Shown: positions 1 to 6,397 of the stretch, piece after piece | Position numbering within the stretch: the first letter of the stretch is position 1 | How the letters are laid out: the number at the start of each line of letters is the position of its first letter | Assembly: GCA_009782475.1 (NCBI GenBank) | Contig: WRIZ01000007.1 | Coordinates: 2,132-66,131 of the forward strand | Direction: 5' to 3' | DNA length: 64,000 nt | DNA from: Oscillospiraceae bacterium | GTDB taxonomy: Bacteria; Bacillota; Clostridia; Oscillospirales; UBA929 | Translations under genes and position numbers: made by a program | Notes under the pieces: model-generated | Database searches by the model: none | What the model was told of the DNA's origin: nothing | What the model saw: the letters and a program-made list of their open reading frames with translations, nothing else

Positions 1-537
1 ATCGCGCGCTTTTTCGTATATTTTCTGATTCTCCACCCGTTCGGCCAAAAGTTTGCATTTGGCCAAATTGACATGAGAGCAAACGGCGTAAAAGTTCCGC
101 ATGGTAAACGAGCCGTCAAGAAAATCAATTTTAACAATATCGGCGAGTGCCAGCAGCGGGTTGAGCGCGGGCCGATAACGGAGGTCGTCAAGTGCCAGTG
201 TGTAGCCCAGTTTTTTCAGGCGGCGCAGCTCCTCAATGACCTCATCCGACGGGTCTACGTCCTCTAAAACCTCAACAACCATCGTATTCGGAGGGAAATA
301 GGTGGGCACACCGTCGAGGAGGAGTTTTTGCGTAAAATTGACGAACGCCATTTTCCCGCCGGTGATATTCTCGATCCCGCGCACTTGAAACCCTTCGATC
401 ACGGCGGCGGTCGCCCTCTCCCCGTCAATAGGGTTGCCCGAATTATCGGCATGAGGGCCGCCCCGGTACAGCAATTCATAGCCGTAGAGGCGCATATTCT
501 GATCTAATATCGGCTGCCGGGCAAAATATGTCTGCAC
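1..537 (-). CDS. EAL-domain (YuxH/PdeH-like EAL-HDOD) c-di-GMP signalling protein, runs off the window edge
   Basis: Not in the ORF track. Manual translation from GTG 537 (SD GGTGGTGG) gives MQTYFARQPILDQNMRLYGYELLYRGG...AFVNFTQKLL...VVEVLED...GYTLALDD...IVKIDF...LLAERVE, the typical YuxH N-terminal EAL motifs. Confidence 0.85.
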   Translation of the reverse strand, partial: MQTYFARQPILDQNMRLYGYELLYRGGPHADNSGNPIDGERATAAVIEGFQVRGIENITGGKMAFVNFTQKLLLDGVPTYFPPNTMVVEVLEDVDPSDEVIEELRRLKKLGYTLALDDLRYRPALNPLLALADIVKIDFLDGSFTMRNFYAVCSHVNLAKCKLLAERVENQKIYEKARD

Positions 538-578
538 AGCGTTTCCACCACCCAATCATTATCTTAATATTTACAGCG

Positions 579-776
579 TTACGGTTTATCCTTCTTTTTG
601 ATAAACAGCCAATAGAGCATCAGGGTGAACACCGCGAACAGCAGCACCATGCCGAGTACCTGTTTCAGTTCGTAGGCCGCCGTCACCGCTATATACGCCG
701 ATATGGCGGACAGACCGAACAGGATCCCCATCACCGCCAGGCAAAGCCAAAAAAACCGGTTGCGTTTCTTTTTCAC
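579..776 (-). CDS. Small two-TM membrane protein (65 aa)
   Basis: GTG start with SD AAAGGGGG, basic N-terminus, two hydrophobic segments, sigma-A-like promoter upstream. Confidence 0.7.
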   Translation of the reverse strand: MKKKRNRFFWLCLAVMGILFGLSAISAYIAVTAAYELKQVLGMVLLFAVFTLMLYWLFIKKKDKP

Positions 777-799
777 GTAAATCCCCCCTTTACAATTCC

Positions 800-828
800 A
801 TTATATATCAGTCCGCTGGGAAATACAA
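800..828 (-). promoter_or_regulatory. sigma-A promoter TTGTAT-N17-TATAAT
   Basis: Near-consensus boxes with 17-bp spacer upstream of 776. Confidence 0.65.
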
Positions 829-856
829 GGTTTAGCGGGAAAAGGTTTGTTTCAAC

Positions 857-1318
857 ACCGCGGCAAACAGTGAAGAATCGCGCCCATATTGCGGCAAATG
901 CTTTGCCGAACTCCTCAACGCGGGTATCCTGCCGAACAACATACATATCTACGACATGGACGGCACCATGACGTTTGAACAGGCTATGCAATATGACGCG
1001 CTTTACGTTACGGGCGGGAATACGGCTTATCTATTACGACGCATGAAAGAAACCGGGTTTGACGGTATTGTGAAAAAGATGGTCAATGCGAACAAGGTCT
1101 ATGTGGGCGTGAGCGCGGGCAGCCTGATCGCCGCACCAAACATAGGCGATCCTTATGATAAGGATACGGCAGGACTGTGTTTGATTCACGCGTATCTTTC
1201 ATGCCATTGCCCCAAGGGGACAGAAGCACGGAAGGATTTGCCGCTGCCGCATATCCCGCTGTGTGCCGGACAAGCGTTGGCGGTCAGTTGGCAGGGATAT
1301 GAGCTGATCGAAGGGTAA
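857..1318 (+). pseudogene. 5'-truncated peptidase S51 (dipeptidase E-like, class I glutamine amidotransferase fold)
   Basis: Motifs YDALYVTGGNT and YVGVSAGS. Family-like sequence (TAANSEESRPY...FAELLNAGI) continues upstream of ATG 956 to about 857, then meets TAG 833 with no start codon or SD. Confidence 0.6.
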
Positions 1319-1323
1319 TATAA

Positions 1324-1352
1324 TTGACGCGTTGAGGTTTTTGTGGTATCTT
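1324..1352 (+). promoter_or_regulatory. sigma-A promoter TTGACG-N17-TATCTT (extended TG) for putative type I toxin mRNA
   Basis: Consensus-like boxes, 17-bp spacer, TG extension. Confidence 0.7.
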
Positions 1353-1431
1353 GGAGAAGCATGGGCGGTGTGTCGGCGGTCTTTGTCCTCCTACGCCAAG
1401 CGTAAGCTAGGCGTGAAGGAGGTGATGCCAT

Positions 1432-1506
1432 TTGAGGTACATAGTCGAGGTTAGAAAACTCTTGCAAGCCTTGACGTCCTTGATCCGCATTATTAAAACA
1501 AAGTAA
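1432..1506 (+). CDS. Putative type I toxin peptide, 24 aa MRYIVEVRKLLQALTSLIRIIKTK
   Basis: Strong SD AAGGAGGTG (1416-1424), TTG start, stop inside a hairpin, convergent antisense promoter. Too short to appear in the ORF track. Confidence 0.65.
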   Translation: MRYIVEVRKLLQALTSLIRIIKTK

Positions 1507-1586
1507 CCGCCTCCCTAGCCAAGAGCAACGGTTACTTTGTTAACCTATTAACTTGAGGCGAAGACCGTTGAGGTGCCGCCCCTCTG
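1495..1586 (-). ncRNA. Putative antisense antitoxin RNA (about 90 nt, ends approximate)
   Basis: Perfect promoter at 1592-1620 with no ORF downstream; ends at hairpin ACAAAGTAACCG...CGGTTACTTTGT followed by a U-tract on this strand. Confidence 0.65.
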
Positions 1587-1591
1587 CAATG

Positions 1592-1620
1592 ATTATAGCA
1601 GAGCGTTTAAGCATTGTCAA
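1592..1620 (-). promoter_or_regulatory. sigma-A promoter TTGACA-N17-TATAAT (extended TG)
   Basis: Perfect consensus on the minus strand. Confidence 0.85.
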
Positions 1621-1640
1621 GACATATAGGGAGGAGCAAT

Positions 1641-2153
1641 ATGAAAGAATCGGAAATGACCGCCGAAAACGCTGTGGAAATCATCAAGCTGTTAGAGCAA
1701 AACGGGATCGAAGTCTATGTTGACGGCGGTTGGGGCGTTGACGCTCTGCTCGGCGAACAGACACGCAGACACGACGACCTTGACATTGCTCTGCCCCACA
1801 GATTTGTGCCTAAACTGCGCGAGCTTTTTGAAGCCCGAGGGTATACAGATGTGCCCTGTGACGACACGCGGGATTGTAATTTCGTACTGGGCGATGATAA
1901 GGGACGCTTGATTGACGTTCATTCCTATACCTTTGACGAAAGCGGACAAAACATATTCGGCGTTGCTTATGAGCCGCATCATCTAACCGGAACAGGCGTC
2001 ATAAACGGCTATCCGATCAAATGTATCCCGCCGGACGTCATGGTCGAGTTTCATACCGGATACGAAGTGGATGAAAATGATTATCTCGACGTAAAAGCCT
2101 TATGCGAACGTTTTGAGCTTCCTTTGCCGGGTATTTACGAAACATTTGAATAA
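1641..2153 (+). CDS. Lincosamide/aminoglycoside nucleotidyltransferase (Lnu(A)/Lnu(C)/ANT(2'') family)
   Basis: Motifs VDGGWGVDALLGEQTRRHDDLDI, IDVH, FHTGYEVDENDYLDVKALCERF; SD GGAGG before ATG 1641. Confidence 0.8.
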   Translation: MKESEMTAENAVEIIKLLEQNGIEVYVDGGWGVDALLGEQTRRHDDLDIALPHRFVPKLRELFEARGYTDVPCDDTRDCNFVLGDDKGRLIDVHSYTFDESGQNIFGVAYEPHHLTGTGVINGYPIKCIPPDVMVEFHTGYEVDENDYLDVKALCERFELPLPGIYETFE

Positions 2154-2172
2154 ATATATATGGAGGTGCGAT

Positions 2173-2361
2173 ATGAAAAAGTTCGAGTACAAAGTATTAT
2201 CAATCAAAAAGGGTACATTCACTTCAACCGATAAGTATATGGCGCAATTCTCAACCGAGCTGAACGCGCTCGGAGCCGAGGGATGGGAGCTGATTGAAAT
2301 TACGGGAAACGCTTCCATAGATGGGTTTATCATTCAGGTCTTCAAACGGGAGATGGATTAA
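2173..2361 (+). CDS. DUF4177-family small protein
   Basis: MKKFEYKV...LNALGAEGWELI...VFKRE pattern; SD GGAGGTG. Confidence 0.8.
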   Translation: MKKFEYKVLSIKKGTFTSTDKYMAQFSTELNALGAEGWELIEITGNASIDGFIIQVFKREMD

Positions 2362-2409
2362 GCGTGATCCCGGCATGACTTCACTCTCTCCGCTAAGATC
2401 AGTTTACGC

Positions 2410-2438
2410 TTTACAAATACCGACTAATACCGTATAAT
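2410..2438 (+). promoter_or_regulatory. sigma-A promoter TTTACA-N17-TATAAT with AATACCG direct repeat in spacer
   Basis: Seen directly upstream of the DUF4160 gene; the repeat may be an autoregulatory operator. Confidence 0.65.
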
Positions 2439-2459
2439 AATATAGGGAGGGATGAACTC

Positions 2460-2726
2460 ATGCCTATTATTTCATCGTTTTATGGTATTGTCATCAGAAT
2501 GTATTTCAAAGACAACGAACGTCATCATTTACCGCATTTTCACGCAAAATACGGAAGTACGGCGGCTTCTTTTGACTTAGACGGCAATATGCTGGCAGGG
2601 GAGTTCCCGAATAAGCAAATGAAATATGTTGTCGCATGGGCGGATATTCACAAAGACGAACTAACCGCTTTATGGGATATTATGCAGACGGACGAGGAAT
2701 ATTTTAAGATAAAGGGGCTGGAATAA
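2460..2726 (+). CDS. DUF4160 protein (HicA-like, putative toxin)
   Basis: MPIISSFYGIVIRMYF...HHLPHFHAKYG...WADIHKDEL...W signature. Confidence 0.9.
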   Translation: MPIISSFYGIVIRMYFKDNERHHLPHFHAKYGSTAASFDLDGNMLAGEFPNKQMKYVVAWADIHKDELTALWDIMQTDEEYFKIKGLE

Positions 2727-2972
2727 ATGACGAATTATCCTGTCTTATCAGAAGTGGTTCCTCTTGATAATTATAAACTTGCGCTTACATTTGGCAGGGA
2801 TGAACGGCGTATATATGATTTTACCCCGAACTTAAATCATAAATTTTATTGTTCTTTGTCAGATATAAAACTTTTTGAGAACGTTTCGGTGGTGGATGGG
2901 GATTTAATTTGGATTACAGGTCAAGATTTTTGCCCTCACACTTTATATGAAAAGAGCATTCCTATTCCGTAA
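2727..2972 (+). CDS. DUF2442 protein (putative antitoxin partner)
   Basis: VVPLDNYKLALTF...LFENVSV...W..GQDFCPHTLYE signature; abuts DUF4160. Confidence 0.85.
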   Translation: MTNYPVLSEVVPLDNYKLALTFGRDERRIYDFTPNLNHKFYCSLSDIKLFENVSVVDGDLIWITGQDFCPHTLYEKSIPIP

Positions 2973-2983
2973 AAACAAACAAG

Positions 2984-3020
2984 AAACGGGCGGCTGTCGC
3001 ATTACAGCCGCCCGTTTTTT
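2984..3020. terminator. Bidirectional intrinsic terminator
   Basis: 14-bp stem AAACGGGCGGCTGT/ACAGCCGCCCGTTT between convergent DUF2442 and groEL. Confidence 0.85.
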
Positions 3021-3039
3021 AGTGCTTATAGCTCGTGGA

Positions 3040-4674
<1,635 letters not shown>

Positions 4675-4685
4675 CTATGTTCCTC

Positions 4686-4991
<306 letters not shown>

Positions 4992-5018
4992 TTAGCACTC
5001 AGCTCGTGAGAGTGCTAA
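4992..5018. promoter_or_regulatory. CIRCE element (HrcA operator)
   Basis: Perfect TTAGCACTC-N9-GAGTGCTAA upstream of groES. Confidence 0.97.
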
Positions 5019-5029
5019 CATGCCTATTC

Positions 5030-5058
5030 ATCATAATCGCGCCGCCTGCGAGACGCAA
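5030..5058 (-). promoter_or_regulatory. groESL sigma-A promoter TTGCGT-N17-TATGAT
   Basis: 17-bp spacing, immediately upstream of CIRCE. Confidence 0.6.
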
Positions 5059-5152
5059 ACGGCGCAATTCGGGTATATTGGAGGTTCATGGGTTATTTTC
5101 TAATGTTTTCTTCTGTTTTCTCTCAAATGCTCATGGTTACAGTTTTTTACGG

Positions 5153-6397
5153 TCAGACATTCATTACCGTTCCGATAAAGATCGGCAGATTGGTGGCGTT
5201 GTCGATGATGACGTAGACAAACGGCCTGTCGAGCCGAACCGTTTTGGGTTGAGACGGAGCCGCGCCCGCGTCTGACATAGCCACCAACGTCGCCGCTCCG
5301 GCTTTGGTGCCGAGTTCGTCCACCGAAATAAACGTCTTGTGGATGACCCTGTCAATGAAGATATTGCCGCGTGACGAAACCGCCATTTTCTCAAATTCCG
5401 CTTCATCCATGTCAAAGGCGTCGGGCATCCCAAGAGCGATCAATATGTCGTTCATGTTGACGTCATACTCATATTCAAATTTGGGCAGCGCGGCGTACAC
5501 TTCAACGTTCTGCGCGTTTTGAAGGGTTTCCAAGAATCCCGCGCCGTTCAATGACGCGATATACTCCCCGATGGAAATACCCTCGTTGGGCAGCAGGGCG
5601 GCGAAGCTGTATCCGTTTTCATACGGTTTGATAAACCCCGCTGCCAGCCCGTCTTCGAGGTATGTATACTCTGAAGAGTGCATGAAATCAGCTTTTTTCT
5701 TTGTGCCGCTAATGTCGGTAAAGTCACCTTTACGCACGTTTTCCAAATAATATACATTCTTCCATTCGGCGTCGAACACAATGGCGTTGATGAGGTATAA
5801 GACGTCATCATCGAGAATCTCTTCGAGAATTTCTTTGATCATGCCGTCGGTGTTGTCTTTGACCCAGTTGTTGACGTCTTTCAGCGTTTGGGTGTCAAAG
5901 GCCGCTTTATAAGCCGCCGCTTTGTAGTAGTCGGCGTTTGCTTGCAGGAAACCGGGCTGCACCTGCAAACGGTCTTCGTCGTCACGGAACCAAATGGAGT
6001 TGGCGATGCTCAATTTCGACTTCGCCGTACTCGGGAGGCCTTTTGTGTAACTGTACAGGGTTTCATTCAGGCTATCAATCGATAACCCGCCGCCGAGCAG
6101 GGCTTCCATTTGACGCAGAGTCTCCCCGCCCGCCCCGTTGGCCGTCATGGCCAGCGCGAGCTGCACCGAGAGCGGCGAAATCAGCGCGTTTTGATCGGCG
6201 GAAACGCTCTTCTTGAAGAGTTCGACCGCGAAATCGGCCGCGCTTCCGATGAAAGCGTCGTCAACGGGCTTGCCGTTCACTTTGTTTGAAGAGACGCCTT
6301 TCATCAAGTCGTCCGCGGCGGCTTGCACCGACGCGCAGCCCACCGCCCCGGCGAGCAGCAACGCGGCCAGTATAAGGGGAATGATCCGTTGTTTCAT
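5153..6397 (-). CDS. Serpin-family lipoprotein
   Basis: Lipobox-like AVGC; serpin motifs ISPLS, NAIVFDAEW, LPKF, hinge ELGTKAGAAT, LDRPFVYVIID. Confidence 0.93.
   Translation of the reverse strand: MKQRIIPLILAALLLAGAVGCASVQAAADDLMKGVSSNKVNGKPVDDAFIGSAADFAVELFKKSVSADQNALISPLSVQLALAMTANGAGGETLRQMEALLGGGLSIDSLNETLYSYTKGLPSTAKSKLSIANSIWFRDDEDRLQVQPGFLQANADYYKAAAYKAAFDTQTLKDVNNWVKDNTDGMIKEILEEILDDDVLYLINAIVFDAEWKNVYYLENVRKGDFTDISGTKKKADFMHSSEYTYLEDGLAAGFIKPYENGYSFAALLPNEGISIGEYIASLNGAGFLETLQNAQNVEVYAALPKFEYEYDVNMNDILIALGMPDAFDMDEAEFEKMAVSSRGNIFIDRVIHKTFISVDELGTKAGAATLVAMSDAGAAPSQPKTVRLDRPFVYVIIDNATNLPIFIGTVMNV

Follow-up and report, generated by a model that had tools for sequence, protein, structure and literature searches.

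We found that a gap between two genes near the start of a 64,000-nt stretch of DNA from an Oscillospiraceae bacterium (assembly GCA_009782475.1, contig WRIZ01000007.1, positions 2,132 to 66,131 of the forward strand; hereafter the window, numbered from its first letter) holds a small module at 1324–1620, in which an open reading frame (ORF) for a 24-residue peptide lies inside a strongly folded RNA and is faced by a convergent promoter. This locus is probably a chromosomal type I toxin-antitoxin (TA) module with the architecture of bsrG/SR4, in which the peptide would be the toxin and the membrane its presumed target. The amino-acid sequence of the peptide is under purifying selection, and the module is multicopy and autonomous. 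A first-pass annotation, made from the letters of the window alone, had proposed a type I TA-like locus here; its two convergent promoters, its TTG-started ORF behind a Shine-Dalgarno (SD) sequence, the sequestration of that SD, the pairing of the 5' leader with the 3' end through G-U wobbles and the hairpin over the stop codon that would end an antisense RNA were all recovered in our analysis (Table 1).

A short peptide under purifying selection

Searching by BLAST, covariance model and peptide motif for loci that keep both the peptide and the fold, as the first-pass annotation had suggested, we found at least 56 distinct full-length copies. The frame is open in all 56 (24 codons, or 25 in three copies), and homologues that keep the RNA without the frame, which that annotation had named as evidence against its proposal, are absent among the full-length copies. 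An ATG, GTG or TTG stands at the expected codon 1 in 52 of the 56 copies when 24 codons are counted, and in 55 when the three 25-codon copies, which start with ATG, are included. The TTG of the window copy stands 9 nt past the SD core, and all three copies of the window's genome start with TTG, 8–9 nt past the SD core, which indicates that the window's TTG is a local habit and not a defect. At 24 codons the frame is a small coding ORF under 60 codons, as is generic for type I TA loci.

For the codon analysis we used 52 distinct 72-nt coding stretches, leaving out the three 25-codon copies and collapsing identical stretches. Synonymous difference (pS) is 0.614 and nonsynonymous difference (pN) is 0.221, giving a pN/pS of 0.36 in frame as compared to 0.75 and 2.5 when the same DNA is read in the other two frames, and the entropy at the three codon positions is 0.80, 0.31 and 1.22 bits. 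Eight residues are invariant in these stretches (Glu6, Arg8, Lys9, Gln12, Ala13, Leu14, Lys22 and Lys24). Synonymous codons are used freely: Leu14 is written with all six of its codons, Arg8 with five and Ala13 with four, and Ser16 is drawn from both serine boxes. Taken together, the pN/pS ratio, the entropy by codon position and the invariant residues with varied codons show that selection acts on the amino-acid sequence.

RNA fold, convergent promoters and kinship with bsrG/SR4

The plus strand of 1355–1600 folds at –106.3 kcal/mol as compared to –69.2 ± 4.8 kcal/mol for shuffled sequences (z –7.7; none of 200 shuffles folds as well), whereas the minus strand of the same segment folds less well (z –3.7), which assigns the structure to the plus strand. 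The conserved G-U pairs in the helix that closes the fold likewise identify plus as the folded strand. We built a covariance model, R1, from 15 aligned full copies (alignment A2), all of the kind that we call class A, defined as an R1 match above 90 bits. In the 15-sequence alignment 95.1% of the cells are paired, and changes on both sides are found in 10 of 44 pairs, as compared to 3.6 ± 1.4 in shuffled alignments (none of 500 reaches 10) and 2–4 in slid controls. With 63 distinct sequences, in an alignment that was fitted to R1 and leans towards the model, double changes are found in 29 of the 44 pairs, as compared to 14.3 ± 1.9 after shuffling and 9–13 in slid controls. We excluded from these pair counts the hairpin inside the ORF, whose one-to-one covariation is blurred by a register shift of 1 nt between subfamilies, seen by eye. 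Among the 63 sequences, the outer helix between the 5' and 3' ends shows compensatory changes in seven of its eight pairs, and helix 6, the hairpin over the stop codon, shows them in 7 of 13.

The hairpin that sequesters the SD also covaries, with one stem pair that switches between C-G (35 sequences) and U-A (20 sequences). In most copies, as read from the alignment, it is a 5-bp stem with a GNRA tetraloop; in the window copy a 26-nt palindromic insert (1392–1417) takes the place of the loop, and in one copy from another genome the loop is likewise replaced by a palindrome. Similar palindromes are inserted in modules of loci L012, L023 and L024 and in one module of L015. The window's palindrome has GC-rich arms, resembles repetitive extragenic palindromic elements and stands in at least 10 other intergenic places of the window's genome (G000; contigs C21, C1, C8, C36, C22, C12 twice, C4 and C26 twice). 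Short matches to window 1382–1422 elsewhere in the genome were considered as further modules and rejected, since they are these palindromic intergenic repeats. In a subgroup of class A (L050 at 2030–2090, L128, L090, L098, L069 and others), one more GC-rich hairpin, upstream of the R1 match, separates the promoter from the 5' strand of the closing helix.

Both strands are presumably transcribed, judging from their promoters. Window positions 1–4000 contain 14 promoter-like sites, as compared to 4.5 ± 2.1 in shuffles. Just beyond the 3' strand of the closing helix, we found a minus-strand promoter that matches at least 10 of 12 consensus positions in 52 of the 56 copies (12/12 in 12 copies, 11/12 in 25 and 10/12 in 15; TG extension in 44), and its –10 element ends at one of two adjacent positions in 47 of these 52. 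By comparison, 3.9% of 5000 random stretches from the same sources score 10/12 or better. The other two copies of the window's genome have antisense promoters of 11/12 and 12/12. The plus-strand promoter is weaker and less constant: it reaches 10/12 within 106 nt upstream in 40 of the 56 copies, and the spacer sequences vary freely. On the minus strand, the hairpin over the stop codon (read from 1541 to 1497) is followed by a U-rich run at 1488–1496, which together form a predicted terminator, and a 98-nt antisense RNA folds at z –5.3 with a terminal hairpin. The predicted antisense RNA is complementary to the 3' strand of the closing helix, the hairpin and the last few codons; on sequence evidence, the locus includes the cis-encoded antisense RNA gene, overlapping the toxin mRNA, that is generic for type I TA loci. 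In the plus direction, only 21 of the 56 copies have a simple terminator within 90 nt downstream, and its loop frequently contains the antisense –35 element.

The fold and the promoters also bear on whether the locus could be a non-coding repeat, such as a miniature inverted-repeat transposable element or a structured RNA, with a fortuitous ORF. Its many copies and complementary ends would fit such a repeat, which we nevertheless regard as highly improbable: the ORF carries a coding signature and is intact in 56 of 56 copies, the complementarity of the ends needs G-U pairs, which are present on the plus-strand RNA alone, and the conserved promoters are found beyond the complementary ends. A mere DNA repeat is ruled out by the coding signature together with the strand-specific G-U pairs.

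Table 1. Features of the module in the window, with strand and supporting evidence
Feature	Position	Strand	Basis
Peptide mRNA promoter	1324–1352	+	–35 at 1324–1329, –10 at 1347–1352, TG extension, 9/12 match
Structured core of peptide mRNA	1359–1587	+	R1 matches end to end, 192.9 bits, model positions 1–206
Closing helix, 5' strand (equivalent to P1 of bsrG mRNA)	~1363–1387	+	Fold and covariation
SD-sequestering hairpin	1387–1422	+	Anti-SD 1387–1391 pairs with SD core 1418–1422
ORF of 24-residue cationic amphipathic peptide	1432–1506 (including stop)	+	24 codons, TTG start
Predicted antisense (antitoxin) RNA, ~95 nt	1490–1585	–	Start from promoter position, end from terminator hairpin
Hairpin over last codons and stop codon (SL3 of mRNA)	1497–1541	both	Fold; antisense terminator on minus strand
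Closing helix, 3' strand	~1555–1582	+	Pairs with 1363–1387, many G-U pairs
Antisense RNA promoter	1592–1620	–	12/12 consensus hexamers, 17-nt spacer, TG extension

The first-pass annotation had placed the locus on a known type I scaffold, naming txpA/RatA, Fst and the Hol-Tox kind. The txpA/RatA and Hol-Tox comparison held, and we refine it to the architecture of bsrG/SR4; Fst, like hok, is a more distant comparison. In the portions of PMC3834814 drawn on here, probing of bsrG mRNA places the long helix P1 between nt 1–35 and 232–262 and the SD in a 4-bp stretch of stem-loop SL1; the start codon lies at the foot of SL2, and SL3 contains the stop codon. The predicted fold of our locus has the same arrangement: a long 5'-3' helix, an SD within the first stem-loop, a second stem-loop with the start codon at its base and a third that contains the stop codon, together with a predicted convergent antisense RNA that overlaps the 3' part of the mRNA. 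The two systems differ in the length of the antisense RNA (predicted to be ~95 nt here as compared to 183 nt for SR4) and in the peptide, which here has 24 residues, is amphipathic and lacks a transmembrane stretch, whereas BsrG is a hydrophobic membrane peptide. BsrG is also longer than 24 residues.

Although R1 was built from class A only, it also matches other loci end to end at 28–60 bits. In these loci, which we call sister modules, the place of the class-A ORF is taken by ORFs for several types of short hydrophobic peptide; 37 of the 38 matches have an ORF of at least 20 codons. Eleven of the 37 sister peptides reach the gathering score of Pfam Hol_Tox (25.1–44.7 bits as compared to 23.3), two fall just below it and 24 match no family. 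All nine Hol_Tox-type loci that we submitted match the Rfam BsrG family, RF01412 (18.7–48.1 bits, E 8.5e-9 to 0.97), one of them over model positions 1–259. These model matches show the class-A scaffold to be akin to Hol_Tox/BsrG-type modules. In the parts of Fozo et al. 2010 used here, 'holin-like toxins' are placed in the TxpA family and an antisense RNA of ~110 nt over the 3' untranslated region is shown for enterococcal EF3263 (PMC2887945), and the T1TAdb paper, to the extent used, describes the antisense RNAs of Gram-positive families as lying on the 3' side with partial mRNA overlap (PMC8594479). On these accounts, class A shares with TxpA/RatA and Hol_Tox (PF16935) a Firmicute host and an antisense RNA that overlaps the mRNA 3' end (PMC8594479, PMC2887945). 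The class-A peptide differs in that it has no Hol_Tox match at E up to 10, and hence none at the 23.3 bits of PF16935, and in that it lacks a hydrophobic core. In hok/Sok and aapA1/IsoA1, a long-distance interaction between the 5' and 3' ends keeps the full-length toxin mRNA translationally inert, and the module shares this kind of interaction with them. These systems differ in belonging to Gram-negative hosts, in showing no sequence or model match to our locus and in having, as far as the T1TAdb paper was drawn on, the antisense RNA within the 5' part of the mRNA rather than at its 3' end (PMC8594479).

The 2.1-Mb genome of the window carries eight cassettes, three of class A and five sister cassettes. 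The five (L044–L048; C1:45847–46053, C4:1727–1967, C3:37417–37655, C26:1283–1518 and C3:73533–73650) encode hydrophobic peptides of three types, none of which matches a Pfam family. Cassettes can also stand in tandem: L015 (G002:C50) has four at 1346–2770, two of Hol_Tox type and two of another hydrophobic type, with near-identical downstream spacers and a tRNA gene adjacent at 2939–3011, and further tandem pairs are found in L061, L080, L090 and L137. One sister type, a hydrophobic peptide of 24 residues (L061, L082, L044), shares with class A a terminal pattern of Ile, Arg, Ile, Lys and Lys. This common end hints that the class-A peptide may have been derived from such a hydrophobic transmembrane toxin by replacement of its core.

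If the module works as its architecture suggests, the moderately strong plus-strand promoter would give a compact mRNA of ~230 nt whose ends pair in a long helix, with the SD held in a short hairpin that stacks on this helix and with the start codon placed at the foot of a second stem. Because of these three features, the peptide would be translated at a low level. Just beyond the closing helix, a much stronger convergent promoter would give the antisense RNA, which would be perfectly complementary to the 3' strand of the closing helix, the stop-codon hairpin and the last codons of the mRNA. In the portions of PMC3834814 drawn on here, SR4 both speeds mRNA decay and tightens the SD helix. By analogy with SR4 and RatA, pairing of the antisense RNA would lead to cleavage of the duplex by RNase III, and it may also tighten the block of the ribosome-binding site. 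When the antisense RNA is lost, the peptide would be made, and it would most likely bind the inner face of the cytoplasmic membrane and depolarise or permeabilise it.

A cationic amphipathic peptide on a type I scaffold

To compare class-A and sister peptides, we calculated the best 19-residue Kyte-Doolittle window of each. It is 0.62–1.38 in 47 distinct class-A peptides and 1.91–2.94 in 34 distinct sister peptides, with no overlap; two sisters were left out, one because none of its ORFs reaches 20 codons and one because its best ORF is not hydrophobic. Hydrophobic peptides, with windows of 1.85–3.15, are likewise encoded by all ten modules that we examined from other families of the order. 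The longest run free of Asp, Glu, Lys and Arg has a median of 9 residues in class A as compared to 16 in the sisters. The 47 class-A peptides have an 18-residue hydrophobic moment of 0.55–0.75 and a net charge of +3 to +5. These values agree with the first-pass description of the peptide as cationic and amphipathic and not transmembrane, and the comparative evidence supports its suggestion that a known type I scaffold here carries a peptide of a new class, with the part of toxin a presumed one.

The peptide is not described in the databases that we searched. Pfam, NCBIfam and PADLOC gave no match for the window peptide at E up to 10, and no Pfam family matched it or the other two copies of the same genome at that threshold. 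When all 19 class-A peptides borne on genomes were searched against PHROGs, one member had one weak match at E 0.0019, and a profile search of the PDB with the same 19 gave four matches at chance level alone (E 0.063 or worse). In the part of a review used here, type I toxins are either membrane peptides with a transmembrane helix or cytosolic nucleases such as RalR and SymE (PMC8309996), and class A fits neither group as given there. In the literature, T1TAdb itself and paper supplements aside, we found no description of a non-transmembrane amphipathic type I toxin.

We raise, as a tentative reading that may well prove wrong, that class A is a third mechanistic kind of type I toxin, a 24-residue cationic amphipathic helix with four invariant polar residues that arose inside a lineage of transmembrane-toxin cassettes. 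It might act from the cytoplasmic side like an endogenous antimicrobial peptide, form a defined oligomeric pore lined by polar residues, or have a specific cytosolic target. Of greatest interest to us is the strict invariance of Glu6, Arg8, Lys9 and Gln12, which hints at a specific partner or at a defined oligomer.

These same residues allow a different view of the peptide, in which the RNA module is as described but the peptide is a domesticated small protein, for example a regulator, that has a specific cytosolic or membrane-peripheral partner and is controlled by the antisense RNA without arresting growth. The eight invariant residues of the 52 coding stretches, four of them polar, and the lack of a transmembrane stretch would suit such a protein, and Fozo et al. 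2010, in the portion drawn on here, report a small hydrophobic protein of this sort that is non-toxic when overproduced (PMC2887945). However, the module is dispersed, multicopy and decays into remnants as selfish TA cassettes do, its scaffold is common to Hol_Tox-type modules, and its antisense promoter is stronger than the peptide promoter, which is the usual TA asymmetry. We consider a domesticated protein unlikely, but it is the alternative to be taken most seriously.

Phenol-soluble modulins and delta-haemolysin, which is encoded within the structured regulatory RNAIII, are short unprocessed amphipathic helices, and the class-A peptide seems to resemble phenol-soluble modulins and leaderless bacteriocins. 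With the modulins and delta-haemolysin the resemblance is of the 'works like' kind alone, and we found no sequence similarity. Their loci are not known to have an antisense antitoxin, and they are exported virulence or competition factors, unlike cassette toxins. It could be supposed from this resemblance that class A is itself a leaderless bacteriocin-like or modulin-like peptide that is exported, with the antisense RNA gating its production, since the peptide is short, cationic and strongly amphipathic. However, no transporter or immunity gene recurs beside the copies, whose neighbours are unrelated housekeeping genes, and a 24-residue peptide in up to eight dispersed copies per genome fits a selfish cassette better. 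We hold an exported peptide to be quite improbable; a bacteriocin operon in particular is unlikely because the flanks are varied and mostly housekeeping.

Several observations weigh against a type I module with a membrane-directed toxin, which is still the reading that we prefer. The class-A peptides lack the transmembrane alpha-helix found in type I toxins of the membrane-associated kind in the account of PMC8309996 used here, and the invariance of Glu6, Arg8, Lys9 and Gln12 exceeds what generic membrane damage needs. At E up to 1, RF01412 matches neither the window locus nor the class-A loci L069 and L070, so that none of the three comes to its gathering score of 55 bits, and the nine sister loci that it does match score below 55 as well. 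The antisense promoter is not found by our scan in 4 of the 56 copies, one of which is cut by a contig end. In the window copy itself, no simple plus-strand terminator lies within 90 nt to set the 3' end of the mRNA, and its TTG start and enlarged SD hairpin suggest that this copy is possibly weakly expressed.

Class A puts another sort of peptide on a scaffold akin to that of the experimentally dissected bsrG/SR4, and the sister modules with ordinary transmembrane toxins provide built-in natural comparisons. It can thus be asked experimentally whether a non-transmembrane amphipathic peptide can serve as a cassette toxin and what the invariant polar residues do. The class-A peptides are moreover a natural set of short cationic helices that may interest antimicrobial-peptide research.

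Distribution, decay and genomic setting

When we compared the window's genome and 40 relatives by BLAST, we found full-length relatives of the module with 71–79% identity. The window's own genome has three full copies, two of them found on further contigs (C3 and C9) by profile search, and five weaker matches, and one genome of the same genus has eight full copies. Nineteen copies come from seven genomes of a single Oscillospiraceae-type family together with an additional metagenome-assembled genome (WQXS record, L033), and the others are in metagenome contigs. R1 matches are present in 21 of 30 genomes of the bacterial family, and class A in seven genomes from two of its nine genera. Together with the eight cassettes of a single 2.1-Mb genome, these matches expose a large unannotated cassette expansion in gut Clostridia, for which hardly any type I systems have been charted. 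In a sample of 151 genomes from across the order, searched with R1 under stricter filters, none outside the family scores above 57.1 bits, and full-length matches at 37–57 bits are found in fourteen genomes of other families. A pattern scan of 185,579 species genomes gave 11 loci, all in four metagenome-assembled genomes of Oscillospiraceae or Clostridiales. With a peptide motif taken from the alignment of the 19 genome-borne peptides (A3), we recovered 45 loci from metagenome contigs, each of which R1 matches at E 1e-6 or better. On viral contigs the same motif gave 15 pattern matches, none of which was confirmed, and BLAST of 1324–1620 against plasmid and phage collections gave no match.

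Copies also decay. The 3' half alone, with the antisense promoter and hairpin, remains in L013 (~1430–1633), L022 (~166–302) and L026 (~1998–2128), and in two of these three remnants a plus-strand promoter has moved close. The 5' half alone, with a truncated ORF, remains in L023, L024 and L014.

Neighbours differ from copy to copy and lie in either orientation. Most of the 56 ORFs that flank 14 copies are housekeeping genes, among them those for ribosomal proteins, tryptophan synthesis, DnaJ, tyrosyl-tRNA synthetase and TrmD, and the 56 include no integrase and no recurring neighbour; among these 14 copies, a ParE/Phd pair stands beside one and a Fic gene beside another.

In the window, the locus occupies the gap at 1320–1640 between a peptidase S51 gene fragment (956–1318) and a gene of the aminoglycoside-2''-adenylyltransferase family (1641–2153; Pfam PF10706, 101.9 bits), which lies directly downstream of the cassette on the same strand. 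Between the cassette and this downstream gene there is neither a promoter-like site for the gene nor a terminator, and transcription from the cassette promoter may therefore continue into it. The position directly upstream on the same strand, without a plus-strand terminator in between, could suggest that the locus is a regulatory leader (an attenuator or leader peptide) of this nucleotidyltransferase-like gene. We give this very little credence, as other copies adjoin unrelated genes in either orientation and Rfam shows no riboswitch or T-box at the locus, where it gave no match of any kind at E up to 1 (window 1–6000 searched). The variation of the flanks between copies rules out a leader of the downstream gene.

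Three further observations concern the surroundings of the module in the window. The peptidase S51 ORF spans positions 81–135 of the 206 profile positions and for this reason looks like a gene fragment, and the ORF at 1–555 is the end of an EAL-domain gene. At 2460–2972, genes for DUF4160 and DUF2442 stand side by side, a pairing that has been discussed as a possible TA-like pair.

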